64,000 nucleotides of DNA from Bacilli bacterium (GTDB lineage Bacteria > Bacillota_I > Bacilli_A > RFN20 > CAG-826), in the NCBI GenBank assembly GCA_049419605.1, contig JBMSKF010000005.1, positions 58 to 64,057 on the forward strand, given 5' to 3'. Numbering within the stretch: position 1 is the first letter of the stretch; every line of letters begins with the position of its first letter. Made by a program: the position numbers and the translations under genes. Below, piece after piece: positions 558-24,068 of this stretch. The notes under the pieces were generated by a model. That model saw only the letters and a program-made list of their open reading frames with translations, made no database searches and was not told the origin of the DNA.

Positions 558-633
558 ATTACACCTCTATTGGATTTCATTTTATCTTATGATTGCAATC
601 GAAGGTATAAGAAAATAATCGTGATAAAATAAG

Positions 634-1167: not shown

Positions 1168-1197
1168 AAACCTCCTATAGTTCGGAGGTTTTTTTCT
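1166..1197. terminator. Bidirectional rho-independent terminator shared by the hydrolase gene (+) and tRNA-Ala (-)
   Basis: AAAAACCTCC-tatagttc-GGAGGTTTTTTT. The GC-cored stem is flanked by an A-run on one side and a T-run on the other. Confidence 0.8.
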
Positions 1198-1207
1198 TTT
1201 ACAAAGT

Positions 1208-1283
1208 TGGTGGAGCTGACGAGGATCGAACTCGCTACCTCGTCGTTGCGAACGACGCGCTCTCCCAAATGAGCTACAGCCCC
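1208..1283 (-). tRNA. tRNA-Ala, anticodon CGC, CCA encoded
   Basis: Reverse complement is GGGGCTGTAGCTCATTTGGGAGAGCGCGTCGTTCGCAACGACGAGGTAGCGAGTTCGATCCTCGTCAGCTCCACCA. It shows the G3:U70 Ala identity pair, anticodon stem CGTCG/CGACG with loop TTCGCAA, and a GTTCGATC T-loop. Confidence 0.9.
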
Positions 1284-1297
1284 AAGATTGCTTAACA

Positions 1298-1326
1298 AGA
1301 TTAACAAAAAAAGCATAAAAGAGCAA
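1298..1326 (-). promoter_or_regulatory. Sigma-70-type promoter for tRNA-Ala
   Basis: On the minus strand: TTGCTC, a 17-nt spacer ending in TGT (extended -10), then TAATCT. It lies 14 nt upstream of the mature tRNA 5' end. Confidence 0.45.
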
Positions 1327-1375
1327 CCTTTTGAGGCAATAATATCGTTTTATCAAAAACTTATAAGGTTTCTAT

Positions 1376-1389
1376 TGTAAGCGCATACA
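1376..1389 (+). promoter_or_regulatory. cre/LacI-family operator-like pseudopalindrome upstream of the beta-glucan operon
   Basis: TGTAAGCGCATACA has one mismatch to cre consensus TGWAANCGNTNWCA. The half-sites are TGTAAGC and its near complement. It overlaps a TACAAT -10-like hexamer (1386-1391), 60 nt upstream of the ATG at 1450. Confidence 0.4.
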
Positions 1390-1449
1390 ATATATCTTAT
1401 GATGAAAGAAACCGATTTCCTTAATAAGGAAATTTAAAGGATATTCGAT

Positions 1450-4482: not shown

Positions 4483-4547
4483 CTAGCATCAACAATATAA
4501 GTAGGGAAAATTGTTCGCTATCTATCATCATGAAAGGAAATTTATTG

Positions 4548-7136: not shown

Positions 7137-7151
7137 AGGAGGCTTAGGATA

Positions 7152-8612
7152 GTGAAACATAAAGCTAAACTATCCGTTGTAGCCTTGTTTGTCCTTGCTG
7201 GATGTGGGGGAACCCCATCCAGTAGTGGCAACACTACAACGAGTGAAACGTTACAACCTGTAACGTTGTCTTATGCAGATTGGGGTAATCAAGAACTCAA
7301 TCAACGCATGATTGATTTATTTGAAGCAAAGTATCCGCATATTACGGTCGAACTTCGACAAGATATTGTGGGTGCAGGTTCACAATTTACAGGCAACCTC
7401 GTCACTGCCGCTCAAGCTGGATTACTCCCTGACGTTTTTGCAACCGATAACGTCCCTACCGTTATCAATGCTGGTTTAACGTTGGATGTGGCTCAGTACT
7501 GGGATGCTGATGAAGATGCTCAGTTAGTCTATGACAATATTGCGCTTGCCGGAGTTTATAACGGCAAACGTTATGCCGTTCCGTCATTCCAATTCTTAAA
7601 AGGGATTTTAATTAATCTCAATATTTTTGAACGCGCCAACTTGCAAACCGTTCCAGGAAAGTATCGTATTGATAATGATGGGTATCCTGTAAAGGATTGG
7701 ACATTTGAAGAATTTGTGAATATTGCAAAAGACATTAAAAACTTTGATTTAGTGAATACCGAAAATTTAGTTGTTGGGATGGACACGTGGTATGGATCAC
7801 CTGATTTCCAACAAGTGTGGCCAATGATGCAAAATGCTGAAACCCAATACGATACATGGGATGGTGAACAATTTCATTACACCTCCGCAGATTGGATCAG
7901 TGCGATGCAAGCTAAAGTTGCCCTTCATCAATTAACCGATGGCACGACCACACGTTTTACACCAGAAGATTATGATGCCGAAGATAATGACGAATTAAGA
8001 ACGTATATGATTCAAACCGGTTATGCGGCGATGGACATTGAAGGTTCTTGGCAATTCTGGGTCATTAAAGATGCAATCGATAATCGTGATTTTGAATTAG
8101 GTTTCTGGCCTTATCCACAAGGTGATGCTGGATTATTCCCTCCTACCATTTTAGATTTCCAAGCCGTTTCATCTCAAACTGAGCATCCAGAAGAAGCTTA
8201 CTTACTAGCCAAATGGATGACATTTGGTCAAGATGGCTGGAATGCTCGTTTATCATTATTAGAAGAAGATCGTGAAGAAGCAATCGCGGAAGGGTTAACG
8301 CCTGATTTCTTAGACCGTTTCCCAATTGCGGATTATCCTGATGTTTGGACACGAGTCGAAGGCCTTGTAGAAGGAATTGAAGGGATCGATGCAATTTTTG
8401 ATCGTATTCAATATTCAAAACCAGACTTAGACAAATGGTTACCAGGTTATAAAGATTTCTGGGCATGGGTATACACGCCTGAAAATCCATTTAACTTTGA
8501 TAACTTAGTCGCCGAAGGACCCAATGCAGTGCCAACTTATGCAGCCGCATGGGAAGCACAAATTAATATGCTCGTAGCAGAACAACTTGCTGCCTTAGGT
8601 GCAAGTCAATAA
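7152..8612 (+). CDS. CUT1-type ABC sugar substrate-binding lipoprotein
   Basis: GTG start 9 nt after an AAGGAGG RBS. Lipobox LAGC-GGTPSSSG. At 486 aa it matches the size and composition of family-1 extracellular solute-binding proteins. Confidence 0.8.
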   Translation: MKHKAKLSVVALFVLAGCGGTPSSSGNTTTSETLQPVTLSYADWGNQELNQRMIDLFEAKYPHITVELRQDIVGAGSQFTGNLVTAAQAGLLPDVFATDNVPTVINAGLTLDVAQYWDADEDAQLVYDNIALAGVYNGKRYAVPSFQFLKGILINLNIFERANLQTVPGKYRIDNDGYPVKDWTFEEFVNIAKDIKNFDLVNTENLVVGMDTWYGSPDFQQVWPMMQNAETQYDTWDGEQFHYTSADWISAMQAKVALHQLTDGTTTRFTPEDYDAEDNDELRTYMIQTGYAAMDIEGSWQFWVIKDAIDNRDFELGFWPYPQGDAGLFPPTILDFQAVSSQTEHPEEAYLLAKWMTFGQDGWNARLSLLEEDREEAIAEGLTPDFLDRFPIADYPDVWTRVEGLVEGIEGIDAIFDRIQYSKPDLDKWLPGYKDFWAWVYTPENPFNFDNLVAEGPNAVPTYAAAWEAQINMLVAEQLAALGASQ

Positions 8613-8620
8613 TCACCACA

Positions 8621-8646
8621 GGGAGATTTCCTCACGGAAATCTCCC
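8621..8646 (+). promoter_or_regulatory. Perfect 11-bp intra-operon hairpin immediately after the SBP gene (attenuator or mRNA 3'-end stabiliser)
   Basis: GGGAGATTTCC-tcac-GGAAATCTCCC. The downstream sequence ttgattcg is only weakly T-rich. This is the only strong secondary structure within the 22-kb operon. Confidence 0.6.
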
Positions 8647-8658
8647 TTGATTCGATGC

Positions 8659-11600
8659 ATGAAAAAAACAAAATTAAACCTCCCTACATTGTTTACAAAA
8701 CAAACTGGCATTTGGCTAGTTATTTTGTTTATGGGTCTTACCGGTTTTGTTTTTTTGATGGATCAGTCACCCGCACCGTTGAATGAAAATTTTAACACCT
8801 ACCCTTTTATCCAACCCTCATTTGATTATGCTTATCAAACACAAGTTTATGGCATTCCAACTTATACTGCGAAACAAAATTTCTATCGAGAAGCAGGGGT
8901 TCCTCAAACGGGTTATGAGTCAAGTTACTTTGGAGATTCTCTCCAAGGAACTCCCATTGGAATTCTTGATGCAAACCATGGCAACATCGTAGAAAATTAT
9001 ACGGATGGAGATGAAGTATTTTTATTGGATCAAAGCGAAACCCTCTCTTTTGTTTATGACGGACAAGAGAGTGGAATTATCTCCTTAGCCTTAGATTATT
9101 ACTTACTTGATCAAGGCACTGAAGACACTAAAATTGCTTTAACCATTAATAATGAGTTTCAATTTTATGAATCGCAAACGTTGGTGCTTCCCGCTTCATG
9201 GATGTTTGCAGAAGATACCTTTCCTTTAGATCGTTATGAAAATGAATTACAACCTCAATCTATCAAAGTTAATGCATGGTCAAATCATGTATTAAGAGAT
9301 ATGAAAGCGATGCATGCTTATCCCTATCAATTTTATGTTGAATATGGTGATGAAATTACCCTCCAATTTGTTAATGCAAAGGTTTTAGTAGGCAAGATTC
9401 AAGTTGTGACAAGCGAACCTCTCATTGACTATGCAACTTACCGTGAAGGAAGTCCTCATGCACCCGTGATCGATACTCTATCCATGATTTCTAGTCGGTC
9501 GATGGTGTCGCGAACCGATGCCTCGATTCGTTTAAGAACCGAGCAAGATGCGAGTAGTATGTATTACGATACTCAATTCTTAAAACTCAATACGATTTTT
9601 GGTGATAGCTGGGAACGTGGTGGGCAAACCATTTCCTATGAAGTTGATATCGAAACCAGTGGATATTATGCTTTGTCTTTCCGTTACCGCCAATACTTAC
9701 AAAATGACATGGTGACGATGAGAAGTGTCTATATCAATGGAGAAGTCCCATTCCAAGAATTTTTAGCGATGGCGTTTCCTTATACGATGCAATTTAGAAA
9801 CCGGACCTTAGCCCAAGACAATGGGGATCCTTACTATGTTTATTTAGAAGAAGGCATCAATACAATCAGCCTTGAAGCGGTTAATTATGCCTATCGCTTT
9901 GCCTTAGAAACCCTGCAAACCATCATGTCTCAAATTCAACAACTCGCACTCTCTATCAAACGATATACAGCAGGGAGTAATGATTTATACCGTGATTGGG
10001 AAATCGAAACGTATTTTCCTCAAGCAAAAAATCAAATGCTTGGTTGGGCTGATCAACTCGATGCCATGTATACACATTTATTAAATTTATCCATTAATCG
10101 TAATCCTTCTCAACTTGCCAATGTCAAAGTGAGTAGTGCAAGATTAAGAACTTTTGCGAATCAAATTAATCGCTTACCAGGATTAATGGTGCAATTTGCC
10201 GATGGTGATTCTAGTGTCAATCAAATGCTGGGCGCATTGCTACAAGAAATGATGCGATCTTCTTTAGAAATCGAACGTATCATGATTCATGGTGATGTTA
10301 GTTTGCCACGATCCACTGCCACCTTCTTCCGTAGTGCTTACGAAGGCAGCGCTCGATTGGTTCTTTCTTTTATTAATAATCCATATTCAGCAACACAAAT
10401 GGATGAAGAACAAATTAACGTTTGGGTTAACTTCCCAAGACCCTATATCGAAATCATGCAGGCGATGATTGATCAATTTTATCCCGGTGACCGCGAAGTC
10501 AAACTTTCGCAAATGCCTGATGAAAATAAATTAATTCTTTCTAATATCTCTGGTCAATCTCCAGATGTTGCGGTCGGTGTAAATCACTGGATTCCTTATG
10601 ATTTTGCTGCACGTGATGCCGCGATGGATTTAAGACAGTTTGATGGGTATACCGAAACGGTTTCTCAATTTTCTAAAGGGGCAATGATCCCTTACGTCTT
10701 TGAAGAAGGGGTGTATGGTTTACCTTTAACGCAAAATTTCTGGGTCACATTTTATCGTCGCGACATTATGGAATCGATTGGTGTCAATACCATTCCTCAA
10801 ACATGGGATGAAATTATTGGTATTTTACCTTTATTACAAAGTTATGGGCTAAATTACTTCTTACCCCTTTCGCAATTTTCAGGTTTAAAACCATTTGTTG
10901 CAACATTACCCTTTATCCATCAATTTGGTGGACAACTTTATGCAGAAGACGGCATGAGTACGACAATCAATGAAGAAAATACTTTAAAAGGGATCACCTT
11001 AATGGCGGAACTTTTTACCCTCTATAATATCCCCAAATTCGTCGCAAGTTTTTATAATCAATTCCGATATGGAACGTTGCCGATTGGCATTGGAGATTTA
11101 GGAACGTATTTACTATTATCAAGTGCTGCAAGTGAATTAGACGGATTATGGGCAATGGATTTACATCCCGGATATCAAGACCCCGTGACTCAAGAGATCA
11201 ATCGTTCGAGCGCGACTGGTGCTCAAGGGTCGATGATTTTGGCAAATACCAATATTCCTGAAGATAGTTGGGATTTCTTGTCTTGGTGGATGTCGACACC
11301 TATTCAAACTTTATTTGGTTCCACGCTTCAAAGTACCTATGGCAAAACCTATTTCTGGAACTCTGCTAACTTAGAGGCTTTTGCTGAATCAAGTATGCCT
11401 GAAGAATATAAGTCAGTTGTTTTAGCGCAATGGGAATATGCTTTAGAAGCTAGTCGGATTCCTGGCACTTATATGGTGGAACGAGAATTATCCAATGCTT
11501 GGACCAATATTGTCTTTCAAGGAATCAATCCACGCCAAGCGATTGATGAAGCAGTGAGAATTTCTAATCGGGAAATTATTTATAAGATGGCCGAATTCGG

Positions 11601-11685
11601 TTACACCTTCCAAGGTGAAATTTTACGACCGTATCCTGTGCCGACGATTGATAATATAGATTGGTGGTTGACTCAACATGCTTAA
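8659..11685 (+). CDS. TM-anchored giant extracellular protein: N-terminal TM, CBM-like beta-sandwich regions, a helical region and a C-terminal family-1 solute-binding-protein domain
   Basis: The ATG at 8659 ([12 protein letters not shown]...) lies after the hairpin. TM segment [22 protein letters not shown]6/35-like pattern is present ([12 protein letters not shown]...VYINGE...INTISLEA). From about nt 10411 the protein becomes SBP-like ([22 protein letters not shown]...PDVAVGV...). The stop overlaps the next permease start by 8 nt. Confidence 0.6.
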
Positions 11686-12574
11686 TCGATTATTAGATCG
11701 GATGAATCGCCCTGCTTGGTTTATTTTCCCTTATTGGTTTTTGTTTGCAGTCTTCATTGTGGTACCTGTTGTCGCTGCAATTGGATTATCCTTCACGTTC
11801 TTTAATTCCATACAAACTCCAACCTTTATTGGCATTACAAACTATATTGAATTAATTACTTTAGACACTGTCTTTATGCGATACGTATTACCCAACACCT
11901 TGCGTTTTGCATTTATTGTGGGACCAGTTGGGTATGCATTGTCCTTTATGGTTGCATGGATGTTATCCCACTTACCGAAAAGACCAAGAACGATTTTAGC
12001 AATCATCTTTTATTCACCTTCTTTAACTGCAGGGGTTGCTATGGCAGCGATGTGGCGCATTATCTTTTCTGGAGATGCTCAAGGTTACTTGAATGCGATT
12101 ATGTTGGATTTAGGTTTGATTGTAGAACCGATTCAATTTTTACAAAATCCTGATATGCTCATGACCATTATGATTGTGGTGTCATTATGGAGTTCCATCG
12201 GGGTTGGTTTCTTAGCCATGCTTGCCGGGATTTTAAACGTTGATCGTACACTATATGAAGCGGCTTATATTGATGGCATCAAAAATTGGTTCCAAGAAAT
12301 TATTTATGTCACCATCCCAGCGATGAAGCCACAAATGATTTTTGGTGCAGTCATGGCTGTCGTGGGTACTTTCCAAGCAGGTGCAATTGGTGTTGCTTTG
12401 TCGGGAACCAATCCTACGCCAAATTATGCCGGTCAATTGATTGTAAATCACATTGAAGACTTTGGTTTCATTCGTTACATGATGGGTTACGCGGCGAGTA
12501 TTTCCGTCATTCTATTGTTGATGGTGTATGCGATTTCTAAGGTAACGTGGAAGTTTTTAGGAGAAAAAGATTAA
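11678..12574 (+). CDS. ABC sugar transporter permease (MalF/LplB-type)
   Basis: 298 aa with six predicted TM segments. An EAA-like loop is present ([27 protein letters not shown]). Confidence 0.85.
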
Positions 12575-13452
12575 TGGCCTCAAAATTTTTAGGAACACAA
12601 ATTAATCCGGACCGTTTCCATAAAGGACAACTTCCTTTTTTCATTATTCTCATTTCATTTTCTGTCTTGATGATCTTACCGATTTTATTTATCATCAATC
12701 ACGCCTTTAAACCACAGTCAGAACTCTTTGCCTATCCTCCTGCATTTTTTGTAAAAAATCCAACCCTTGATAACTTTATTGAACTCGCTAGACTTGTTTC
12801 AACATCAGGCGTTCCTTTTTCTCGTTATGTTTTAAATAGTTTGTTCATCACGGGTATCGGCGTTGGCTTGGCAATTTTATTTACCGCTTTATCCGCTTAT
12901 GGTTTAGCCAAATTGCATTTTAAAGGAAAGAAATTATTATTTGAAATCAATACGATTTCTTTAATGTTTGTGCCAATCGCGGTGCAAATTCCTCGTTATA
13001 TTGTGGTGGCCCAATCAGGAATGATTGATACCTATTTCGCTCATATTTTCCCGCTAATTACCATGCCTGTCGCTATGTTTTTAATCAAACAATTCATCGA
13101 TCAAATTCCTAATGATTTTATTGAAGCCGCGCGTATTGATGGGGCTAGTGAGATGCAAATATTCTTTAAAGTCATCATGCCGATGATTGCTCCAGCAGTT
13201 GCCACTGTTGGTATTCTTGCTTTCCAATTAATTTGGAATGATACCTCCACTTCAACCTTATTTATTAATGACGAAAGTTTAAGAACGTTAGCATTTTTCT
13301 TACAAACTTTAACTTCAGGAGTTGGTAATACCATTGCTGGACAAGGAATGGCGGCTGCGGCATCGTTATTAATGTTTATTCCTAATTTAGTCTTGTTTGT
13401 CATCTTACAAAGTCAAGTGATGTCCACGATGGCGCACTCGGGGTTGAAGTAA
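12574..13452 (+). CDS. ABC sugar transporter permease (MalG/LplC-type)
   Basis: EAA loop FIEAARIDGASEMQIFFKVIMPMIAP. The ATG at 12574 is preceded by GGAGAAAAAG; the track's GVG-type extension from 12547 overlaps the upstream gene. Confidence 0.85.
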   Translation: MASKFLGTQINPDRFHKGQLPFFIILISFSVLMILPILFIINHAFKPQSELFAYPPAFFVKNPTLDNFIELARLVSTSGVPFSRYVLNSLFITGIGVGLAILFTALSAYGLAKLHFKGKKLLFEINTISLMFVPIAVQIPRYIVVAQSGMIDTYFAHIFPLITMPVAMFLIKQFIDQIPNDFIEAARIDGASEMQIFFKVIMPMIAPAVATVGILAFQLIWNDTSTSTLFINDESLRTLAFFLQTLTSGVGNTIAGQGMAAAASLLMFIPNLVLFVILQSQVMSTMAHSGLK

Positions 13453-13453
13453 T

Positions 13454-15496
13454 ATGAAACGCTGGTTATATCTAGTTCTTTTTGCAAACTTAGGTTTGTT
13501 ATTACCGCAAAGAACGGTAGTACCCACGCTTGCAGATAATGGATTGCCCTATCAAACTTACACTTATGCAAGTTCACGGCAACAACTTATCCAAACCCAA
13601 GATGCATATTTACCGTTATCTCTTGCAACGCAACTTGGTGATTTCACCCTATCATCACCCCAAGATGTTTACGTGGATTCACAAGATATTATCTATGTTG
13701 CTGATAAAGGTAGAAAATCCATCATCAAATATAATTTGCAAAATGATGAAGCGATTGAAATTGGTTTAGGTATACTCAACGAACCAACAGGTGTCCATGT
13801 TGATGAATTAGGTTCGATTTATGTGGCAGACTTTGCCAATAAAAAAGCTTATCAGTTCATCAATGATGACGGGGAATATAGGGTACAAACCGAGTATCAA
13901 AAACCTCTTAATTCACCTTTCTTTGGTGAAGAAGATCCCTTTGATCCTACCAAAGTTGTCACCGATCGAGGCGGCAACGTCTATGTTTTACTTGCCGGTA
14001 ACGTGAACGGTCTTGCTCAGTTTAAAAATAATGGTGAATTCTTTGGTTATTTCGGTGGCAATCGAATTCCAGCCACAATTGCAAACACCATTCGTTCGCT
14101 ATTGTTTGATGAAGAAACAAGACGTAACTTTTTCCAAATCATTCCTAAGCCTGTTTATAACCTTAGTATTGATCAAAGTGGTTTAATTTTAACCTCTACC
14201 AAAGACCAAGATGGATACTTAAAACTCAACATTGCTAACGTCATCTATAATCAATCGGTTTGGGGTTTTAATACAGTTGAAGATATTGCGGTTGGTCCGT
14301 ATAACACGATTTATACGTTAACCTCTGAAGGTTATATCGTTGAGTATGATCCTAATGGTTCCGTGCTATTTTTATTTTCAGGTCCGGACGCCATTGGGCA
14401 AAAAGGATTATTTAAACGAGCCAAAGGGATCGCGATTGATTCCCGAAATAATTTATATGCAGTTGATGAAGCAACTGGCGCACTCCAAATTTTTATTCCA
14501 ACCGAATTTGCAAATTTAGTTCATGATGCTATCGATTTATACTTTGATGGAAAATATGCCGAATCTTTGGTCCCTTGGCAAAACGTCTTAAAAATGAATC
14601 GGCTTTTTGACCTTGCAAATCAAGGATTGGGTGACGCTTATTTTGCTTTACAAGATTATGAATCTGCCTTAACTTACTATCGATTAGCGAGAGATACTAG
14701 AGGTTATTCCAATGCTTACTGGGAAGTTCGAAACCAATTCCTGTTAGTCAATGGCAATGCTTTCGTCGTTTTCTTAATGATACTTATCGCTTTCTATGTG
14801 GTTCGCAAATTCATTCCTGGCTATGTTTGGGTGCAAACGCAAATCCATAATTTAAAACAAAAAACCACGCTTCCTAATTGGATTAAAGAACTCCAATTTC
14901 CTTTCCAAGTGTTTGCCAAACCGGTTGATGGATATGATGATATCAAACGTCATCAAACCTTTAGCAACCGCAGTGCGCTTATTTATTTAATCGCATTCTT
15001 TGTCGCGTATTTAATTTGGATATACGAAACCAACTTTTTATTTAACGGTTTAATCTCTTCTGAAATTAATATAGTTGAACAAGTGATTGGTGTCTTTGTT
15101 CCATTTGGTTTGTGGGTTGTTAGTAACTACTTAGTTTGTTCCATACGAGATGGCGATGGTAAATTATCGGAAGTATTTCAAGCATCAGCCTTAACATTAT
15201 TGCCAATGATTATCACCTTCCCAATTCTGACGATCATTTCGCATGGGTTAACGGCAAATGAAAGCTTTATTTATGATTTGATATATGGCATTGGTGTGAG
15301 CTTTACCGTGATATATATGTTTATCATGGTGAAAGAAATTCATTTCTATGACATCAAACCGACGTTTAAAAACATTCTCATCACGATCTTTACTGCCATT
15401 ATGTTACTTGCTTTAACCTTAATTATTGTCTTCTTGCTTGGAGAAGTTTATCAATTGATCGCCGATATCATTCAGGAGGTGAATAGCCGTGTTTAA
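13454..15496 (+). CDS. Fusion membrane protein: signal peptide, NHL-like beta-propeller, TPR-like helices, then a polytopic Yip1-like domain
   Basis: Repeated blades occur at aa ~60-350: IYVADKGRKSIIKY, IYVADFANKKAYQF, VYVLLAGNVNGLAQF, LYAVDEATGALQIF. A TPR-like stretch GDAYFALQDYESALTYYRLA follows. A TM sits at aa ~428-450, then five more TM segments in a Yip1-like region (FQVFAKPVDGYDDIKRH...). Confidence 0.6.
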   Translation: MKRWLYLVLFANLGLLLPQRTVVPTLADNGLPYQTYTYASSRQQLIQTQDAYLPLSLATQLGDFTLSSPQDVYVDSQDIIYVADKGRKSIIKYNLQNDEAIEIGLGILNEPTGVHVDELGSIYVADFANKKAYQFINDDGEYRVQTEYQKPLNSPFFGEEDPFDPTKVVTDRGGNVYVLLAGNVNGLAQFKNNGEFFGYFGGNRIPATIANTIRSLLFDEETRRNFFQIIPKPVYNLSIDQSGLILTSTKDQDGYLKLNIANVIYNQSVWGFNTVEDIAVGPYNTIYTLTSEGYIVEYDPNGSVLFLFSGPDAIGQKGLFKRAKGIAIDSRNNLYAVDEATGALQIFIPTEFANLVHDAIDLYFDGKYAESLVPWQNVLKMNRLFDLANQGLGDAYFALQDYESALTYYRLARDTRGYSNAYWEVRNQFLLVNGNAFVVFLMILIAFYVVRKFIPGYVWVQTQIHNLKQKTTLPNWIKELQFPFQVFAKPVDGYDDIKRHQTFSNRSALIYLIAFFVAYLIWIYETNFLFNGLISSEINIVEQVIGVFVPFGLWVVSNYLVCSIRDGDGKLSEVFQASALTLLPMIITFPILTIISHGLTANESFIYDLIYGIGVSFTVIYMFIMVKEIHFYDIKPTFKNILITIFTAIMLLALTLIIVFLLGEVYQLIADIIQEVNSRV

Positions 15497-17855
15497 ACTT
15501 TCACGATTCATCATTCCGATGATTGTATTACCCGTATTAATTGTGACAACCCAAGAGGATCCAACATTAATGGTTGCTCCTCGTGTTGATAATTTTGCTT
15601 TTATTGAAAACCAATTATTGAGTAGTTCAAGATACACGCAAGTAGATGAACAAAATGCGGCTGTTTTAAACCGTTTCGAAGATGACTTTCACTTACAATA
15701 TAGCGAAGAACAACTTGATATTCTTGGTTATGAGTTAATGTTAGAAAATAACAACCTTAATCTTTATTTTGAAAAAGATTCTTTTTCATTGTTGCTTGAG
15801 GATAAGGCAACTGGTTATATGTTATCTTCGCGTCCAGAATTCCAAGGGTATTCTGAAACCAGAGAAGATAACACAGCGAATCGTAATCAAATGAATTCAG
15901 GTTTATGGATTGAATCAATCCGAACCAATAATATTAGTAGCAGTGCAATTAAAGTAGAATCGTTGTACACCATTGCAGATGTAAGTTATCAAACGAATGG
16001 TTCGCAGGATTTAACCAACATTGATTGGACAAGACCTTATTTAATTGAGGCGAATAGTTATCAACGTAGTCGAGTACAAGTCACCACTTCATCTATTAAT
16101 GAAACAAGTTTTAAATCCACGATTCAGATTACAAACTATGGTTTTAGTTTTGACATCACCATTGGCTTAGAATCGAATGGATTTTCTGTTCGTTTTAATC
16201 CAACAACTATCCAAGAAAATAATGATCAATATCGCTTACTTGGATTACAATTTTTCCCATATTTTGGTTCTGCTCGTGAGGATATTTATCCCGGTTATGT
16301 TGTCATTCCAGATGGCGTTGGTGCATTAGTCAGAACCAATCAACGTTTTGATAAAACCTATCAATCTGATTATTATGGTTCAGATTTAGGTTATCTAAGA
16401 AACTCGGTTGCCTCGTTATCCCTTCCTATTTATGGCATGATTCATCAAGTCAATCGTATTGGTTTTTATCATGACATAGTTGAGGGTGCAGAACATGCAA
16501 CCTTATTAGCGAATTTCTGGGGTAGAAACACTCGTTATCATCGCATCACAAATCGATATAACGTTCGACGTATTTATCGAAATATCATTAATCGTGCTGG
16601 TGATGGTCAAGATGTTATTCCTACAGAAATGATTACGCAACCTTATGAAGGGGTTTACCGTATTTTAAAAGAAGACCAAGCTAATTACGTTGGCGTGGCA
16701 AAATCTTATCAAAATGAATTAGCAACTCGGCAAGCTATTCAAGCATTAGAAAACACAGAAACACCGATTCAACTTGCCATGCTAATTCACGAACAAGAAC
16801 CTACTTTTTTTGGCACATCACGATTAACCATGACTTCAATGGATGATGTTCAACGCATGCGAGATGAACTCAATGAACAAGGTATTGATGAGCAGCTTAT
16901 CGTCTTAAAAGGATGGTCTGGCGATGGGTATGCTTACCGCCAACCATACTATTTTAATTTACCCGATCGTCAAGGATTATTAGATGTGATTGCAGACGTC
17001 AACGAAGATGGCCAGCATCTATTCCTTGAACAGGACTATCTTGTGAGTAGTGAACTTTCTCGCCGAGTTGAATTTAATCGCGATGTCGCACGAAATTACT
17101 CTAAATTAAAAATGAGTTATCGTCTCAATCGCTTGGATAATCAACCGATTAATGAGTATTATCTTTACCCAACCATCGCTCAAGAAAAACTAGCAAATGA
17201 TATCGCAGTGATAGATGACTTAGGGGCAAGCGGATTTGCATTCCCTCATCTTGGTCAAACCTTATTTAGCTATTATGATGATCAACGAATCAACCGTTCT
17301 GAAACTTTACAAATTGTGACCGATATGGCTGCATCATTAAACCGCTCAGCGATGAATCGGCCATCTGCCTACATGTTCCCGTATGTCAGTCATTATTTAG
17401 AAATGCCAATCACAAATAGTCAGCTGGATTTATTTACTGACTTAGTGCCACTTGTTCCTTATGTGTTAAAAGGGTATGTGCCCACCTTCACACCTTATTT
17501 AAACTTTAATGCTTTAGGAAAAGAACGACTACTCCAAATGATTGATTTTGCAGTGAATCCAAGTTATTTATTAACCGATCAACCAAGTAGCGCGCTTCGT
17601 TATACTTATAGCAATAAATACTTCACCACCGCTTATAGTGATTTCAAAGATGACATCCAAGATGTGTATCAATATATTGCAACTGCATTAAATCCGGTGT
17701 TGGGAACTACGGTCGCTGAACGAACGATGGTACAAACCGGGGTTAGTCGCATTGTCTATGATAATGGCGTCACCTTATATATTAATTACCGTTCTACACC
17801 TGTTACCGTTGATCAACTGACGATTGCGGCATTAGACTATGAGGTTGTGTTATGA
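15489..17855 (+). CDS. N-terminally TM-anchored 788-aa extracytoplasmic protein, DUF5696-like (function unknown; possible glycoside-hydrolase-like fold)
   Basis: GTG start 7 nt after an AGGAGGTG RBS, overlapping the upstream stop by 8 nt. It has a single N-terminal TM (FIIPMIVLPVLIVTT). Motifs GYVVIPDGVGALV and LKGWSGDGY are present. I recognise no named catalytic signature. Confidence 0.4.
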   Translation: MFKLSRFIIPMIVLPVLIVTTQEDPTLMVAPRVDNFAFIENQLLSSSRYTQVDEQNAAVLNRFEDDFHLQYSEEQLDILGYELMLENNNLNLYFEKDSFSLLLEDKATGYMLSSRPEFQGYSETREDNTANRNQMNSGLWIESIRTNNISSSAIKVESLYTIADVSYQTNGSQDLTNIDWTRPYLIEANSYQRSRVQVTTSSINETSFKSTIQITNYGFSFDITIGLESNGFSVRFNPTTIQENNDQYRLLGLQFFPYFGSAREDIYPGYVVIPDGVGALVRTNQRFDKTYQSDYYGSDLGYLRNSVASLSLPIYGMIHQVNRIGFYHDIVEGAEHATLLANFWGRNTRYHRITNRYNVRRIYRNIINRAGDGQDVIPTEMITQPYEGVYRILKEDQANYVGVAKSYQNELATRQAIQALENTETPIQLAMLIHEQEPTFFGTSRLTMTSMDDVQRMRDELNEQGIDEQLIVLKGWSGDGYAYRQPYYFNLPDRQGLLDVIADVNEDGQHLFLEQDYLVSSELSRRVEFNRDVARNYSKLKMSYRLNRLDNQPINEYYLYPTIAQEKLANDIAVIDDLGASGFAFPHLGQTLFSYYDDQRINRSETLQIVTDMAASLNRSAMNRPSAYMFPYVSHYLEMPITNSQLDLFTDLVPLVPYVLKGYVPTFTPYLNFNALGKERLLQMIDFAVNPSYLLTDQPSSALRYTYSNKYFTTAYSDFKDDIQDVYQYIATALNPVLGTTVAERTMVQTGVSRIVYDNGVTLYINYRSTPVTVDQLTIAALDYEVVL

Positions 17856-18919
17856 AGACAAAAAGACCTTCTATTTTTAAACAATTCTTAACGCGTCTTT
17901 TGAATTTGATGGAATCAATGAGTCAATTTTACCAAGCTAAGATTCAACCTCCCTTAGACCGTTTTGTTTATCGCTTAAAACATAATTTTATTTATCGAGA
18001 AATCGGTAATACAGTGAAAATATTTTCCTTAATCACCATTCGTATTACAAGAAAACGTCGGCATGCATTTTATGGCTATCTATTTATTTTGATATGGTTA
18101 ATTGGGATTGCGATTTTTACCTTATATCCCTTAGGATATTCATTTTATTTAAGTTTTCATGAAGCCTATTACAACTTACAAGAAGGCGTTATTACCACAT
18201 TCATCGGCTTCACGAATTATGTCAACATATTCAGAAGTCAAACCCTTGTGCCTGCTTATAGCAATTATTTAGGAAGAATGGTGGTTGCGGTTCCCATCAT
18301 CATTGTCTTTTCAATCATCATTGCCGTCCTCGTCAATATGCCAATCAAGACCAAAAGTTTGTGGCGAACTGTTTTCTTTTTACCGGTGATTATTTCAACG
18401 GGTCCTGTCATCAATGAATTGAATGCTCAAAGTGCGATTACTTTACCCAATTTACAGGCGAGCGGAATCTATAGTTATATCGTCAATAATTTACCAAGCT
18501 TTTTAGCAGATCCTTTAACCACTGTCATTAATTCCATGCTTTTAATCCTATGGTATGCAGGGATTCCTATCCTCATTTATTTAGCAGGATTACAAAAAAT
18601 TGATCCGAGTTTATATGAAGCCGCCAGTATGGATGGCGCCTCACCTTGGATGCGTTTTTGGAAAATTACCTTACCATCATTAATGCCGTTTACCGGTATT
18701 TCCATTGTCTATGTTGTGGTATCGATGTCCTTATTTGTTGAACCAGGTGGCATATTAGATTTAACAAGGACCCACATGTTAGTGGGGGCTCCTGATTCTG
18801 CATTCTGGTTTGGATATGGATATGCAGCAGCGATGGCGTGGGTATATTTCATTTGTATGGTCTTATTGATTCTAGTTTTTACAAGTCTTACCCGAGAAAA
18901 AAGAGGTAAAGTAAAATGA
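17852..18919 (+). CDS. ABC sugar transporter permease with a long N-terminal extension (LplB-like)
   Basis: ATGA start/stop overlap with the upstream gene. EAA loop LYEAASMDGASPWMRFWKITLPSLMP. 355 aa. Confidence 0.85.
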   Translation: MKTKRPSIFKQFLTRLLNLMESMSQFYQAKIQPPLDRFVYRLKHNFIYREIGNTVKIFSLITIRITRKRRHAFYGYLFILIWLIGIAIFTLYPLGYSFYLSFHEAYYNLQEGVITTFIGFTNYVNIFRSQTLVPAYSNYLGRMVVAVPIIIVFSIIIAVLVNMPIKTKSLWRTVFFLPVIISTGPVINELNAQSAITLPNLQASGIYSYIVNNLPSFLADPLTTVINSMLLILWYAGIPILIYLAGLQKIDPSLYEAASMDGASPWMRFWKITLPSLMPFTGISIVYVVVSMSLFVEPGGILDLTRTHMLVGAPDSAFWFGYGYAAAMAWVYFICMVLLILVFTSLTREKRGKVK

Positions 18920-19854
18920 AACTTTCCTCACTCATTTCAGTCTCCCAACAACAAAAAATGAAAAAAGTTTGGTTAGGAAAAACCTTAACTGATGGTTTGC
19001 TATACAAGGTTGTGATTTATTTATTGTTGATTAGTTTTAGTTATATTTATTTATATCCTCTGTTATTTATGTTGATCAACAGTTTAAAATCTGTTGATGA
19101 TTTGATTAATCCTGGTGTGCAATGGATTCCCACCGTCTTAAAGTGGGAAAACTATGAACGCGCCTTTCAAGTTTTAAGTTTGCCAAACTCGTTGATTGAT
19201 TCAACCGTCTATGTTTTAAAGGTCAGTGTCAGTGCGACTTTATCGAGTGCTTTAATTGGTTATGGTTTTGCTCGATTTGATTTCCCTTTTAAACGCTTAT
19301 TCTTTGCAATTATGTTAGCGACCTTTATTCTCCCTCAACAAGTGACCATGGTTGCGAATATGCTTATCTTTAGAGAATTAGAAATCATTTCAACTGAATG
19401 GGCGATGCTGTTACCAGCGATGACAGGGCAAGGTATCAATGCTGCAATTTACATTTTGATTTTTTACACATTCTATCGAACGATTCCAGGCATCCTCATT
19501 GAATCTGCAGAAGTGGATGGGGCTGGTCAATTAAGAATTTTCCGAACCATCATCCTGCCTTTAGCGATACCTTCTTTTGTCATCGTTTTCTTATTTAGTT
19601 TTGTTTGGTATTGGAATGAATCCTTTATTACCGGCTTATATGTAGGTGATAAGGTGACCTTGCCTTTATGGTTACAAGCTTTTAGAGCTTCGTATGAAAC
19701 AATTTTCCCACCTGGTACACCCGGAGCAGAACTAAATGAAGCCATTTTACTTTCAGGAAATATGTTGACGATATTACCTTTACTTTTACTGTATTTCTTT
19801 GGTCAAAAATTATTTACGCAAAGTATCGATAAAACGGGAATCACTGGAGAATAG
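18916..19854 (+). CDS. ABC sugar transporter permease (LplC-like)
   Basis: ATGA overlap with the upstream gene. EAA loop ESAEVDGAGQLRIFRTIILPLAIP. 312 aa. Confidence 0.85.
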   Translation: MKLSSLISVSQQQKMKKVWLGKTLTDGLLYKVVIYLLLISFSYIYLYPLLFMLINSLKSVDDLINPGVQWIPTVLKWENYERAFQVLSLPNSLIDSTVYVLKVSVSATLSSALIGYGFARFDFPFKRLFFAIMLATFILPQQVTMVANMLIFRELEIISTEWAMLLPAMTGQGINAAIYILIFYTFYRTIPGILIESAEVDGAGQLRIFRTIILPLAIPSFVIVFLFSFVWYWNESFITGLYVGDKVTLPLWLQAFRASYETIFPPGTPGAELNEAILLSGNMLTILPLLLLYFFGQKLFTQSIDKTGITGE

Positions 19855-19855
19855 T

Positions 19856-21007
19856 ATGAAAAAAATATGGCCTTTAACATTCTTAATCGTGACCGTCACG
19901 TCTTGTGTCAATCCAAGTGTAAGCTCATCCTCATCAAGTGGTGTTCCTAATGGAAGGTTACCATTAACCCCTGTGGAAGGTTGTGGAGTACAAACGATTG
20001 ATAACCAATGGGTATGTACATGGACTGATGAATTTAATGGAGATGATCTAAATTCTGATCATTGGAATATTGAAGTGAATGGCGATGGTGGTGGTAACCA
20101 AGAAGCTCAATACTACCGCAGTGAAAATATCTCAGTCAGTGATGGCACTTTAAAAATTACAGCTAAAAAAGAAAATTATTTAGGGAAGCAATATACCAGT
20201 GGTCGAATTAATTCCCGTTATAAAGTGAATCCTCAATTTGGTCGAGTAACGTTTCGCGCCAAAATGCCTGCAGGAAGAGGAACTTGGGCAGCAGTATGGA
20301 TGTTACCGTTGTTCAATCGCTTTGGACAATGGCCTAATAGTGGTGAAATCGATATCTTAGAATATGTCGGTTATGACCCAGGCACCGTTTTTTCGGCAAC
20401 GCATACGACTAAATTCAATCATACAAAAAATAACAATCCCAGTGCCTCTAGAGTATTAGTCGATCCTGAAAATCAATTCTATGAATATGAAATGATTTGG
20501 TTACCAGGAGAAATTAGGATGTTTGTGGAAGGCAATCCTTATGGTACCTATCGATATGTTCCACAATTTAATCAAGACGTCCCTTATGATGATGTATTTC
20601 CATTTCAAGAAGAATTTTATTTCATCATTAATCTTGCGGTTGGTGGTAGTTGGGGTGGAGTTCAAGGCATTGATCCGCTTGCCTTTCCTACTGTATTTGA
20701 AATCGATTATTTACGCATATATGAATGGGATTATGCCAATCATGATCTCACACCACCTGAAAAACCAACAGCCCTCGCAACTTCGCAACTCGAGAATACC
20801 ATTCATTGGAATCGCCCAAATGATGACACATGGGTTAGCCATTACGCGATTTATTTAGATGGTGTGAAATATCGCGAAGCAAAAATTAATCAATTTACAT
20901 TCGTTGGACTTGAAGAACGGAGTTACCAAGTTCAAGTTGAAGCGATTGATTTTGTTGGTAGAACTTCACCCTTATCCGATGCTATTACCTTTAACTTTGG
21001 AGGGTAA
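19856..21007 (+). CDS. Surface lipoprotein GH16 endo-beta-1,3-glucanase (laminarinase) with a C-terminal FN3-like domain
   Basis: The ATG at 19856 follows a GGAGAA RBS. Lipobox VTSC plus a poly-Ser linker. GH16 catalytic motif WPNSGEIDILE. The C-terminal roughly 90 aa (PPEKPTALATSQLENTIHWNRP...YQVQVEAID) is FN3-like. Confidence 0.85.
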   Translation: MKKIWPLTFLIVTVTSCVNPSVSSSSSSGVPNGRLPLTPVEGCGVQTIDNQWVCTWTDEFNGDDLNSDHWNIEVNGDGGGNQEAQYYRSENISVSDGTLKITAKKENYLGKQYTSGRINSRYKVNPQFGRVTFRAKMPAGRGTWAAVWMLPLFNRFGQWPNSGEIDILEYVGYDPGTVFSATHTTKFNHTKNNNPSASRVLVDPENQFYEYEMIWLPGEIRMFVEGNPYGTYRYVPQFNQDVPYDDVFPFQEEFYFIINLAVGGSWGGVQGIDPLAFPTVFEIDYLRIYEWDYANHDLTPPEKPTALATSQLENTIHWNRPNDDTWVSHYAIYLDGVKYREAKINQFTFVGLEERSYQVQVEAIDFVGRTSPLSDAITFNFGG

Positions 21008-21011
21008 ACTC

Positions 21012-21728
21012 ATGCTCAAACCACATCAAAAACTTGTCTTTAAAGAAACGTTTCAATCTTTGAATCGTGATGTTTGGAATTTAGAAGTAGGTGAAAAATG
21101 GTTTAACGATGAACGACAATGTTATGTGGATTCACCCAAAAACCTCCAGATCACTCCACAGGGCTTACGAATTATTGCCGATATCAATCCTGCTGAAAAA
21201 AAGTGTCGATATCAATCCATTCGTTTAAATACAAAAGATAAAAAAGAATGGCAGTATGGAACGTTTATTGCTCGCGCCAAACTTCCTCATGGAAAAGGTT
21301 CCTGGCCCGCAATTTGGTTATTAGGTCACGATATTGGAACTGTAAAGTGGCCATTGTGTGGTGAGATTGACTTATTAGAAATGGTGGGACATGATCCAGA
21401 AGTTTTACATTTTAGTTTGCATTCACAGTTACATAATCACATTATTAAAACGCAACGGACGAAGTTTCAAAAAATTCCTGGCATCATGGAAGGTTTTCAT
21501 GATTATAAAATGATTTGGCGTCCCGAAGGCATTAGTTTTTTTATTGATGATATTCATTATGTAACCTTTGAGAAGAAACCAAATGATCCAATTGAAAGTT
21601 GGCCTTTTGACAAACCCTATTATCTGCTCATTAATATTGCGGTTGGAGGTACTTGGGGTGGAAAAATTGAAGAACAAGACATGCCATATGTGATGGATGT
21701 TGAAAAAATTGAGGTGTATCAAGAATGA
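21012..21728 (+). CDS. Cytosolic GH16 beta-glucanase paralog
   Basis: The ATG at 21012 lies 8 nt after a GGAGGG RBS. There is no signal peptide. GH16 motif WPLCGEIDLLE is present, and the domain ends INIAVGGTWGG. Confidence 0.8.
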   Translation: MLKPHQKLVFKETFQSLNRDVWNLEVGEKWFNDERQCYVDSPKNLQITPQGLRIIADINPAEKKCRYQSIRLNTKDKKEWQYGTFIARAKLPHGKGSWPAIWLLGHDIGTVKWPLCGEIDLLEMVGHDPEVLHFSLHSQLHNHIIKTQRTKFQKIPGIMEGFHDYKMIWRPEGISFFIDDIHYVTFEKKPNDPIESWPFDKPYYLLINIAVGGTWGGKIEEQDMPYVMDVEKIEVYQE

Positions 21729-23047
21729 AAGTCATTGTCAGTACTGCTTCAGGAGCTCGCTGGGCAAATCAACCTGTGACACTCTCAAAGGTGCCGATGG
21801 GGACAAGTTTAACTTTAAATCCTAACCAAACCTATCAAACCCATCTTGGATTTGGTGGTTCCCTTACTGAATCAGCGGCCTACACGATCAAAGAAAACCA
21901 TGATGAAGCCACCGTGCAAAACTTATTGGATTTATATTTTTCCAAAGATGGATTAGATTATCACTTTACTCGTATCCATATGAATTCCAGTGATTTCGCC
22001 TTAGGAAATTATACTTACGTTGAATATGGTGATAAGACATTATCAACTTTTTCTATCGCCAGAGAATCTTGGTATGTCTTACCGATGTTAAAAAAGATTT
22101 TAGCCAAACAAAAAGATTTAAAAATTTTGATTTCACCTTGGTCGCCTCCAGGATGGATGAAAGATAATTTACAAATGAATCATGGCGGGGTCTTAAAACC
22201 AGAATTCCATTCATTATGGGCACAATACTACATCAAGTTTATTCAAGCATTGCAACAAGAAGGCATTCAACCCTGGGGTGTCACCGTACAAAATGAACCT
22301 GCTGCTAAACAAGTTTGGGACTCATGCTTATACACACCTGAACAAGAACGAGACTTTATTAAATTACATTTAGGTCCACTATTGCAAAAATATTTTCATG
22401 ATCAAATTAAACTTCTTGTATGGGACCATAATCGGGATATCATGGTTGAAAGAGTTACACCCATCTATGCTGATCCCAAAGCCAGTCAATTTGTTTGGGG
22501 GACAGCCTTCCATTGGTATGGAGAAGAAAAGTTTGAGAATGTCGGTAAAACAAAAGCATTGTTTCCGGATAAACATTTATTGTTCACAGAAGGTTGCATC
22601 GAAGGAGGTCCTCGACCAGGATCTTGGGATACCGGAGAACGATATGCCCGTAATATTATCGGAGATTTTTTACAAGGGAATGAAGGATTCATCGACTGGA
22701 ATTTAGTGTTAAACGAACAAGGGGGTCCTAATCATGTTGGAAATTATTGTGATGCCCCTATTTTATTTGATCGCCGATCTCAAACTGTGATTAAAAATAG
22801 TTCCTATTATGTGATTGGTCATTTTTCAAAATTTATTCCACCTCAATCCAAGCGCATCCAATTCATTGGAAAACTTCCTGATGGCATGCTTGGTGTTGCT
22901 TATCAAACCCCTGAACAAAACAATGTGATGGTCTTATTAAACACCACCACGCTTCCTCAAGTTTTTTCGATGGAAATTCAAGGAACTTGGCAAACCTTTA
23001 CTTTAGAGGCGAAAGCGATTGCCACGATCATCAAAGATGAAAAGTAA
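21725..23047 (+). CDS. GH30 family glycosidase (glucosylceramidase/beta-1,6-glucosidase-like), cytosolic
   Basis: FGGSLTESAAY, VTVQNEP (acid/base Glu) and LLFTEGC (nucleophile Glu). 440 aa with no signal peptide. Confidence 0.8.
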   Translation: MKVIVSTASGARWANQPVTLSKVPMGTSLTLNPNQTYQTHLGFGGSLTESAAYTIKENHDEATVQNLLDLYFSKDGLDYHFTRIHMNSSDFALGNYTYVEYGDKTLSTFSIARESWYVLPMLKKILAKQKDLKILISPWSPPGWMKDNLQMNHGGVLKPEFHSLWAQYYIKFIQALQQEGIQPWGVTVQNEPAAKQVWDSCLYTPEQERDFIKLHLGPLLQKYFHDQIKLLVWDHNRDIMVERVTPIYADPKASQFVWGTAFHWYGEEKFENVGKTKALFPDKHLLFTEGCIEGGPRPGSWDTGERYARNIIGDFLQGNEGFIDWNLVLNEQGGPNHVGNYCDAPILFDRRSQTVIKNSSYYVIGHFSKFIPPQSKRIQFIGKLPDGMLGVAYQTPEQNNVMVLLNTTTLPQVFSMEIQGTWQTFTLEAKAIATIIKDEK

Positions 23048-24068
23048 ATTACGTAAACTTACCATTCATCAATTAGCTGCAGATCTTTCGTTATCTCCAG
23101 GAACCGTCAGTAAAATTCTCAATGATAAAGGTAGTGTCACTGAAGAAACTAGAAATCGGGTGCTAGCGCGGGCAAAAGCATTAGGATATGTTGCAAGCCA
23201 TTCTGCAAGAATCTTAAAGGCAGAGCACACATGGACTATTGGCGTTGTCTTTTCAGACATTGCTTCATTCGGTTTGGAACATCCTTTCTTTGGATCGATT
23301 ATTCAAGCTTTTAAAAACCTCATTGAAGATAAGGGTTACGAAATTGTGTTTATTCCTAAAAAAATAGGTGCGCAAGAACAAACCTATTTACAATGGGCTT
23401 TAAATAAAAGTGTGGATGGTGTTTTGTTATTAACCGGCGACATCAACGCTTCTGATATTCAAGAATTAATCCGCGCTGATATTCCATGTGTATCCGTTGA
23501 CATGGTGGATCCTTTACTTGCCACGGTGATTAGTGATGATTTTCAAGGCATTGAACTTATTTTTAAACACTTTTTACAGCTTGGATTTCAACGGATTTTT
23601 GCTTTTTCTGGATCGACGTTATCGAGAGCCTATCAACAACGAACCGAAGCCTTTGAAAAATTAACCTTACAATTTAAAACAGATCGCGCTAAGGAATTTT
23701 ATTTTTCTACTGATAAATATGGCGTCAAGCATTATTACGAACAAGCACTTCTATGGATTCAAAGTTGGCAAGTCAAACCACAAGCGATTATTGCGTTTTC
23801 TGATGATATTGCGATGGGACTGATTATGGCGTTACAAGAATTAGGTTATCGCGTTCCTGAAGATATTTCCGTATCTGGATATGATGATATTCAATTTGCA
23901 GGTTTGTTTTCCCCACCATTAACGACCATTCGCCAAGATAAAAAAAGGATTGCAGAAACCGCAGCCTTAAAATTATTGTCGATGATTGAGTCTGACGATC
24001 AAACCAAGGGACTTACGAAAGTTCCTGTACAACTCATCGTTCGTCATTCCACTAAACGGATCAAATAA
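23037..24068 (+). CDS. LacI-family transcriptional regulator
   Basis: N-terminal HTH LTIHQLAADLSLSPGTVSKILN followed by a periplasmic-binding-protein-like sugar-binding core. It is the last gene of the operon. The ATG at 23037 is preferred over the TTG at 23019. Confidence 0.85.
   Translation: MKSKLRKLTIHQLAADLSLSPGTVSKILNDKGSVTEETRNRVLARAKALGYVASHSARILKAEHTWTIGVVFSDIASFGLEHPFFGSIIQAFKNLIEDKGYEIVFIPKKIGAQEQTYLQWALNKSVDGVLLLTGDINASDIQELIRADIPCVSVDMVDPLLATVISDDFQGIELIFKHFLQLGFQRIFAFSGSTLSRAYQQRTEAFEKLTLQFKTDRAKEFYFSTDKYGVKHYYEQALLWIQSWQVKPQAIIAFSDDIAMGLIMALQELGYRVPEDISVSGYDDIQFAGLFSPPLTTIRQDKKRIAETAALKLLSMIESDDQTKGLTKVPVQLIVRHSTKRIK

Follow-up and report, generated by a model that had tools for sequence, protein, structure and literature searches.

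A DUF5696 protein with a GH129/GH101-type fold encoded in a transporter cassette of a Bacilli bacterium

The glycoside hydrolases (GH) closest to the protein considered here are those of the GH129/GH101 superfamily. NagBb of Bifidobacterium bifidum (Protein Data Bank (PDB) entry 5wzn), a GH129 alpha-N-acetylgalactosaminidase, is a soluble enzyme of about 630 amino acids (aa) that stands outside any cassette, while the GH129-like DagB/ZgGH129 of Zobellia galactanivorans (5opq, 8rzk) is an alpha-1,3-(3,6-anhydro)-D-galactosidase, soluble and periplasmic, which acts on alpha-linked carrageenan oligosaccharides in a polysaccharide utilization locus (PUL) of Bacteroidota. More remote are GH101, a family of endo-alpha-N-acetylgalactosaminidases, and the clan GH-D families GH36 and GH31, in which a beta-sandwich likewise precedes a (beta/alpha)8 barrel. 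As is established in CAZy, all characterised relatives cleave alpha linkages. The closest described transporters are the CUT1-type ATP-binding cassette (ABC) sugar importers of Gram-positive PULs, which use a shared orphan ATPase; the described systems combine a single binding protein with one pair of permeases, and a Yip1 protein, a second pair of permeases or a protein of GH129 fold is not known as a fixed member of any of them. Here we analysed a 64,000-nucleotide (nt) stretch of DNA (the window; contig JBMSKF010000005.1 of assembly GCA_049419605.1, forward-strand positions 58 to 64,057) from a Bacilli bacterium of the CAG-826 lineage, in which a gene for a DUF5696 protein lies between two pairs of permease genes. 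By profile alignments and a structure model, the protein retains the GH129 fold without the GH129 active site, and its setting is unlike that of any described GH129, GH101, GH36 or GH31 enzyme.

The DUF5696 gene (15489..17855, plus strand) starts with GTG and encodes 788 aa. A Shine-Dalgarno sequence, AGGAGG (15474..15479, plus strand), is located 9 nt 5' of the GTG, and the gene overlaps both of its neighbours, with 8 nt shared between its start and the stop of the preceding NHL-TPR-Yip1 gene and 4 nt between its stop and the permease B1 gene. As a preliminary description of this DNA had stated, the protein has a single N-terminal anchor: the only hydrophobic segment spans residues 4-21 (15498..15551) and residues 5-20 form a helix in the AlphaFold2 (AF2) model. 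Because the protein contains no Cys, it has no lipobox and is not a lipoprotein; the simplest reading is that residues 4-21 would act as an uncleaved signal anchor. The gene was judged to be real given the hundreds of homologues and a ratio of nonsynonymous to synonymous substitution rates (dN/dS) of 0.065-0.13 against orthologues of 70-83% identity, which shows strong purifying selection. The other 17 genomes of the genus, many of them incomplete and none larger than about 1 Mb, each had a match, and 12 had at least two.

The Pfam model PF18952 (DUF5696) matched residues 203-784 over model positions 7-612 of 612, with an E-value (E) of 2e-123 and 413.5 bits against a cut-off of 25.6, so the earlier label of DUF5696-like was well chosen. 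The statement that no motif could be assigned was also apt, as no other Pfam family matched the 788-aa protein even at E<=10 and no NCBIfam model matched it. Between the anchor and the N-domain lies SSRYTQ (residues 46-51, 15624..15641, plus strand), an instance of the motif S-[NS]-R-[YF]-T-Q that some 60% of the family share, the paralogue of the same genome among them. S46 is found in 109 and T50 in 106 of the 143 aligned members, 86 of which match a loose form of the pattern, and the block of residues 41-50 has a predicted local distance difference test (pLDDT) score of 96 in the deep AF2 model. Members without SNRYTQ were considered as possible free-standing enzymes and rejected as such: they have the same conserved residues, and those with enough flanking DNA sit in the cassette.

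The AF2 model used here was built on 143 diverse family members and reached a pLDDT of 94.9 and a predicted template modelling score of 0.92; it superseded an earlier run on 27 orthologues, for which the pLDDT was 75 and that of the putative pocket loops below 50. The predicted parts are the anchor helix, an N-terminal beta-sandwich (residues ~82-394, 15732..16670) that carries E243, D275, D299 and R360, a (beta/alpha)8 barrel (residues 427-737, 16767..17699), which is also supported by fold matches, and a C-terminal beta-sandwich (residues 742-787, 17712..17849), all encoded on the plus strand. The barrel strands are placed at residues 427-432, 469-474, 510-514, 582-585, 620-623, 635-637, 651-652 and 692-696 (strands 1 to 8), with an inserted subdomain after strand 3. 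The beta-sandwich and following barrel-like region that had been proposed from the sequence are thus both in the model, which adds the C-terminal sandwich.

In a Foldseek search of the PDB, the closest structures were glycosidases, the kind of similarity that a structure search had been expected to reveal. The best match was the Zobellia GH129-like 3,6-anhydro-D-galactosidase (5opq; E 2e-32, template modelling (TM) score on the target 0.69), followed by GH129 NagBb (5wzn; E 1e-25, TM on the target 0.71), GH101 (E 1e-18), GH36 (E 1e-15) and GH31 (E 2e-14), and the model from 27 orthologues gave the same order. The three-domain fold of GH129 is therefore present by the AF2 model and the matches to 5wzn and 5opq. 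The GH31/GH-like layout suggested in the preliminary description was right as to a glycosidase fold, while the nearest families are GH129/GH101, to which there is also a link at the level of sequence. GH101, GH36 and GH31 differ in their weaker matches (TM 0.28-0.50 on the target); no Pfam model for them matched at E<=10, their strand-4 Asp has no equivalent, and there is no acid after strand 4 by which the protein could be placed in GH31 or GH36.

Compared singly with PDB sequences, the 788-aa protein gave noise only, and profiles were needed. With the profile of the 143-member family, hmmsearch found ZgGH129 at E 3.9e-8 and NagBb at E 1.4e-4, which makes the Zobellia enzyme the best match in both structure and PDB profile searches. 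A genome of the same class encodes a close NagBb homologue (E 1.3e-176 to 5wzn), and relatives of this homologue were collected and 34 of them aligned as a NagBb-type set. Comparison by hhalign of the 143 cassette-type sequences with these 34 gave a probability of 98.7% with E 4.2e-16 over 572 columns, spanning all three domains. The most conserved motif of the family, GYVVIPDGVGALVR (residues 269-282, 16293..16334, plus strand), is homologous to 'GYSLIPYRQGILLP' of GH129. The two motifs best shared with GH129 are GYVVIPDGVGALV (residues 269-281), which corresponds to 'GYSLIPYRQGILLP', and LKGWSGDGY (residues 473-481), which corresponds to 'LDGWGQPGY'; these are the two strings that the preliminary description had quoted, and both are present as quoted. 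Shared with NagBb are the IP..(Q)G strand of the N-domain, (D)GW...GY after strand 2, an Arg where helix 4 starts (R603, NagBb R454), the strand-7 motif VP(L/F)..(L/I)V and the C-terminal sandwich, at an overall identity of about 12%. The protein differs from NagBb in being anchored, about 150 aa longer and bound to a cassette.

Among 299 sampled genomes of the phylum, scores on the Pfam DUF5696 model were bimodal. The cassette type, which includes the protein studied here, is about 725-1322 aa long and scores 330-600 bits, and the NagBb type is about 600-630 aa long and scores 45-75 bits. The true NagBb homologue scored 75.6 bits on DUF5696 compared with 40.9 bits on its own Glyco_hydro_129 model, and PF11308 gave no match to the DUF5696 protein at E<=10. 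It should be noted that many genuine NagBb-type GH129 enzymes (P0270-P0389) are named 'DUF5696 domain-containing protein' at NCBI, and that this name thereby lumps probable enzymes with cassette-type proteins that have no catalytic residues. By profiles and model, the protein that had been proposed as a candidate for a new glycoside-hydrolase-like family belongs to a divergent, cassette-bound branch of the GH129/GH101 superfamily, and not to an unrelated family with a new fold. We do not file the protein as a member of GH129, because it lacks the catalytic features that define that family.

To locate these features, the D486N difference between PDB entries 8rzk and 8rzg pinned the Zobellia nucleophile in the alignments, and D435 and E478 of NagBb were found in the alignment of the NagBb homologue with 5wzn. 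In the Zobellia enzyme D486, E517, E531 and D202 are essential, only the nucleophile is common to NagBb, and among the other acids used is one that the partner subunit contributes from its N-domain (PMC5698469). The nucleophile (NagBb D435, Zobellia D486) was traced in three alignments, which were a HMMER profile alignment with ZgGH129 and hhalign alignments of the family with the NagBb family and with a ZgGH129 fragment; it falls on T591 with the NagBb family and on Q590 with ZgGH129 by both programs. No more than about 6% of the 143 family members have an acid in these columns, and Asp and Glu are absent from the whole segment of barrel strand 4 and its loop, GFAFPHLGQTLFSYY (residues 582-596, 17232..17276, plus strand). 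Column 586, which follows strand 4 directly, had first been taken as the equivalent of the nucleophile and was rejected, as all three alignments put the nucleophile 4-5 residues later. This column has Asp or Glu in 47% of the family and Pro here, and it aligns opposite NagBb D430 and near Zobellia E481/D483. Either register leaves the DUF5696 protein without an acid.

The acid/base residue is likewise missing. Neither Asp nor Glu occurs in residues 613-637 (17325..17399, plus strand), the counterpart of the acid/base strand of GH129; NagBb E478 and Zobellia E517 fall in an alignment gap, at an insertion, and Zobellia E531 aligns to P631. The family column nearest to the acid/base position is Asn in 64% of members. 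The roles of Ca2+ and Trp398 in NagBb have been described (PMC8106489), and Trp398, the stacking platform, aligns to N547. Of the positions changed in the NagBb quadruple mutant, which may be metal or sugar ligands, three align to V472, K474 and E514, and the strand-1 His falls in a gap beside E435. The residues concerned correspond to the invariant H310, D312, H356 and W388 of the NagBb family (numbering of the homologue P0270), which are the His/Asp residues of strands 1-3 and the Trp platform. By these alignments, the GH129 active site is lost in this protein and across the cassette-type family. Since nucleophile and acid/base are both absent family-wide, glycosidase activity cannot be inferred by homology, a point on which the preliminary description needs correction. 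We also looked for an acid relocated in the manner of GH97 that would anticorrelate with column 586; only column 514 stood out, and it was rejected because it is confounded with clade and not kept in the orthogroup.

In place of the GH129 residues, the family has a different set of conserved polar residues, counted family-wide over members of 23-41% identity to the query, so the conserved acidic residues that had been expected across homologues do exist. In the N-domain, E243 is acidic in 97% and D275 in 96% of members, D299 is conserved in 87% and R360 in 96%, and P274 and G278 of the motif P274-D-G-x-G278 are invariant. In the barrel, the conserved positions are E/D435 (94%), the motif G475-W476...G480, D516 (68%, with Asn in a further 23%), D532 (76%), R603 (92%, common to GH129), Y628 (92%), D/E638 (60%), P654 and N672 (both 100%) and D/E686 (100% acidic). 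D651, which is acidic in 93% of members, lies on strand 7 in DLVP (residues 651-654, 17439..17450, plus strand); it has no counterpart in GH129, in which Ile or His is found, and is the strongest candidate for an acid with a function specific to the family. Nearly all of the conserved barrel residues are located at or just past the C-terminal ends of strands 1, 2, 3, 5, 6 and 7, and the C-terminal strand ends are the usual ligand face of a TIM barrel. Columns 586, 590, 595, 626, 634 and 665, which are adjacent to the putative pocket, vary between cassettes.

The gene was found in the same company in other genomes. The cassette order is an optional small binding protein, a giant binding protein, permease pair A, an NHL/TPR/Yip1 protein, the DUF5696 protein and permease pair B, and the twin-permease, NHL-Yip1 and DUF5696 genes occur in this order in the window. 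A second DUF5696 gene, of 24-26% identity at the protein level, is found in the host genome (about 1.0 Mb, 92.6% complete) on another contig (C23; locus positions 1-7663), where it is preceded by the end of a giant binding protein gene, two permease genes and an NHL/Yip1 gene and followed by the first part of a permease-B1-like gene that the contig end cuts off. This contig ends before any enzymes associated with the second cassette. Two cassettes of about 11 kb each make up about 2% of this streamlined genome of about 1 Mb. Between the two cassettes, the proteins of permease pair A are 62 and 56% identical, the giant binding protein 43%, permease B1 37%, NHL-Yip1 32% and DUF5696 26%, which makes DUF5696 the most diverged.

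Five distant loci (L059, L060, L061/L062, L065 and L066), with DUF5696 proteins of 25-29% identity, had enough flanking DNA to be informative, and two further distant members were on contigs too short to judge. Two permease genes followed by a Yip1 gene and a DUF5696 gene were found in all five; a giant binding protein with a binding-protein Pfam match was present in four, and permease genes lay 3' of DUF5696 in four, within the reach of the contigs. The enzymes nearby varied, with PF10091 'Glycoamylase' and GH35 in two of the loci (and GH3 as well in the longer contig) and GH51/CBM4_9 beside the cassette in another. The DUF5696 gene is thus a fixed member of a transporter cassette that is found beside different sets of glycosidases, and not an extra enzyme of this one operon, as had been supposed. 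The cultured Peloplasma aerotolerans M4Ah (L028) has a syntenic orthologue locus that includes the CBM4_9 lipoprotein and GH16.

The overlap at the Yip1/DUF5696 junction was also observed in relatives of 25-45% identity. It amounts to 8-17 nt in five of the distant loci and in the Peloplasma orthologue (among them L059, L060, L061, L065 and L028), being mostly 8 nt and 11 and 17 nt in two, and there is no overlap in L066. This suggests a conserved translational coupling of the two products.

Orthologues of 40-83% identity were confined to Acholeplasmataceae-like and related wall-less lineages. The cassette type as a whole is common, with 3371 cluster representatives at E<=1e-3, and Pfam DUF5696 matches, a few of the NagBb type among them, occurred in 58 of the 299 sampled genomes, some of which had four or more copies. 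In the literature, we found no paper that mentions DUF5696 or PF18952, no description of the cassette, and nothing relevant on Yip1 proteins with ABC transporters or PULs; the paper that describes Peloplasma mentions neither glucans nor transporters.

The operon around the DUF5696 gene targets beta-1,3/1,6-glucan (laminarin), judged by the families of its enzymes. Its first enzyme is a cytoplasmic GH161 beta-1,3-glucan phosphorylase of 1010 aa (1450-4482, plus strand), which no Pfam model catches and which matches PDB entries 9qqk ('GH161A') at E 5.5e-196 and 9h8v at E 4.8e-196. It is followed by a CBM4_9 lipoprotein (4530-7136), a small CUT1-type binding lipoprotein with the lipobox LAGC (7152..8612, plus strand) and a giant membrane-anchored binding protein of about 1000 aa (8599..11685, plus strand). 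The latter had no Pfam match even at E<=0.1, and its Peloplasma orthologue matches SBP_bac_1 at residues 635-895; its true start is likely an internal MKKTKL, after which a transmembrane segment follows. Permease pair A (11678..13452) and permease pair B (17852..19854), each of two BPD_transp_1 genes on the plus strand, flank the NHL-propeller/TPR/Yip1 membrane protein gene (13454..15496, plus strand), which is immediately 5' of the DUF5696 gene, and the DUF5696 gene itself. At its N-terminus, permease B1 (17852-18919, plus strand, 355 aa) is longer than permease A1 (298 aa) by about 60-70 aa, and this extension could be a docking element for the accessory proteins. No ATPase gene is present in the operon, whose permeases and binding proteins are of the same type as those of the CUT1 importers with a shared orphan ATPase.

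Downstream are a GH16 laminarinase lipoprotein (19799-21007; lipobox ..VTSC; E 2e-58 to 3iln), a second GH16 protein (20904-21728, plus strand), a GH30 beta-glucosidase-like enzyme (21725-23047) and a LacI-type regulator (23019-24068). As listed, the second GH16 gene shares 104 nt with the first; translation probably begins at an internal Met instead, and the product would then be a cytoplasmic laminarinase of about 240 aa. The N-termini of the second GH16, GH30 and GH161 proteins carry no signal sequence, which is consistent with the earlier remark that the operon otherwise has a single extracellular enzyme, the GH16 lipoprotein. A point against the debranching or exo-acting cleavage that had been thought to complement it is that all characterised relatives of DUF5696 are alpha-specific while the GH16, GH161 and GH30 enzymes are directed at beta-1,3/1,6-glucan.

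The reading that we favour, and hold to be somewhat probable on balance, is that the DUF5696 protein is an extracytoplasmic glycan-handling ectodomain of the GH129/GH101 superfamily and an obligatory subunit of the importer cassette. The anchor, and probably the NHL-Yip1 partner as well, would keep the ectodomain at the membrane, and the remodelled barrel pocket of the ectodomain would take up oligosaccharides released by the surface GH16 lipoprotein and pass them to the importer, most plausibly to permease pair B. The divergence between the two cassettes of this genome, with DUF5696 at 26% identity compared with 56-62% for permease pair A, may be read as specificity-like. Several points weigh against this reading. 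Binding of glycan by the ectodomain is deduced from sequence and model, a partnership with Yip1 and the permeases is suggested indirectly by synteny and gene overlap, and the joining of the conserved residues into one pocket is suggested by their strand-end positions. D686, acidic throughout the family, aligns to an invariant Asn of GH129 and is located at the end of helix 678-687, which precedes strand 8, so some of the conserved acids are probably structural. That the same residues are conserved next to very different glycan loci would be just as compatible with an interface between proteins, or with a ligand other than the nutrient glycan.

Within the favoured reading, the pocket may in addition cleave or trim the glycan by means of acids other than those of GH129 (D651, E435, D516 and E638, together with D275 and D299 of the N-domain), which we put a little short of even. 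In favour of catalysis are the conserved carboxylates on the face of the barrel, the variation in columns next to them, the rapid divergence between the paralogous cassettes and the plasticity of the acid/base residue in the superfamily; it is disfavoured by the family-wide loss of the nucleophile, by alpha-specific relatives at an all-beta locus, by the same core beside unrelated substrates and by a degradation route that is complete as it stands. Binding without catalysis, as in a pseudo-glycosidase of the chi-lectin type, is plausible, to a somewhat lesser degree. The GH18 chi-lectins (e.g., YKL-40), which serve here as an analogy only, are glycosidase barrels without catalytic residues that are conserved nonetheless. 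In the chi-lectins one residue has been lost and the ancestral cleft for binding is retained; unlike them, the DUF5696 family has had the whole ancestral site replaced by a new conserved set, so that new catalysis is possible.

The strongest rival takes catalysis further and holds the protein to be a bona fide surface glycoside hydrolase that founds a new CAZy family, with a relocated catalytic pair that debranches or exo-trims laminarin oligosaccharides before uptake. Such a pair might be D651 of strand 7 with E435, D516 or E638, or the enzyme might be inverting, as in part of GH97. Fold and homology do point to glycosidases, several near-invariant carboxylates line the C-terminal face of the barrel, the columns next to the pocket vary as specificity subsites would be expected to, and DUF5696 is the fastest-diverging member of the cassette. 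There is also a precedent for plasticity in the Zobellia enzyme, which shares only its nucleophile with NagBb (PMC5698469). That nucleophile, the strand-4 Asp, is nevertheless the sole residue common to GH129, GH129-like and GH101 enzymes, and it is replaced by Q590/T591 in a family in which these columns are hardly ever acidic; the acid/base region of the protein is without Asp or Glu, and the search for compensating acids yielded only the clade-confounded column 514. Moreover, the characterised relatives are all alpha-specific at a locus whose substrate is all-beta, and the route at this locus is already complete, from the surface GH16 to the cytoplasmic GH161, GH16 and GH30. We regard a new hydrolase family as tentative and, on present evidence, rather unlikely.

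The same fixed cassette that supports an importer subunit would also suit a scaffold that binds no glycan, i.e., a dead glycosidase shell that organises the permease pairs, the giant binding protein and Yip1 and whose conserved polar residues form protein interfaces. The gene order holds whatever enzymes flank it (in all five informative distant loci), translation appears coupled to both neighbours, the same residues are kept beside different substrates, and the positions of the GH129 ligand residues have been given over to V472, K474, E514 and N547. Against such a scaffold, the conserved residues lie on the classical ligand face of the barrel and not on its outer helices, and an identity of 26% between paralogues is unusually low while the channels stay 56-62% identical. 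This explanation is improbable in our judgement.

Action on an endogenous alpha-linked surface glycoconjugate, such as a membrane glycolipid or lipoglycan, instead of an imported nutrient would accord with relatives that are all alpha-glycosidases and with a conserved core that is independent of the nutrient glycan, and it can practically be set aside, as the catalytic residues for such chemistry are absent, the cassette always lies within nutrient-glycan loci with CUT1 permeases and LacI-type regulators, and it occurs in walled as well as wall-less lineages.

A bolder form of the favoured reading is that the cassette encodes a previously unrecognised multi-subunit machine for glycan import in monoderm and wall-less bacteria, in which the DUF5696 protein, as an ectodomain derived from GH129, would be docked by NHL-Yip1 over the second permease pair and would use a new active site, centred on D651 and not on the strand-4 Asp, to trim oligosaccharides or thread them directly into that channel. 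We consider this speculative and, as a whole, unlikely; if true, the protein would found a CAZy family of its own with a catalytic arrangement that is new, and the cassette would be functionally analogous to the Sus-type processing at the cell surface that is coupled to transport.

The cassette-type DUF5696 proteins form a family that is common, wired into a transporter cassette and not annotatable as glycosidases by homology, and a bacterium with a genome of about 1 Mb keeps two such cassettes. Whether these proteins bind or cleave glycans would define either a new mechanism of glycoside hydrolysis or a new class of pseudo-enzyme transporter subunit, and the answer would open the study of surface glycan capture coupled to ABC import in Gram-positive and wall-less bacteria.

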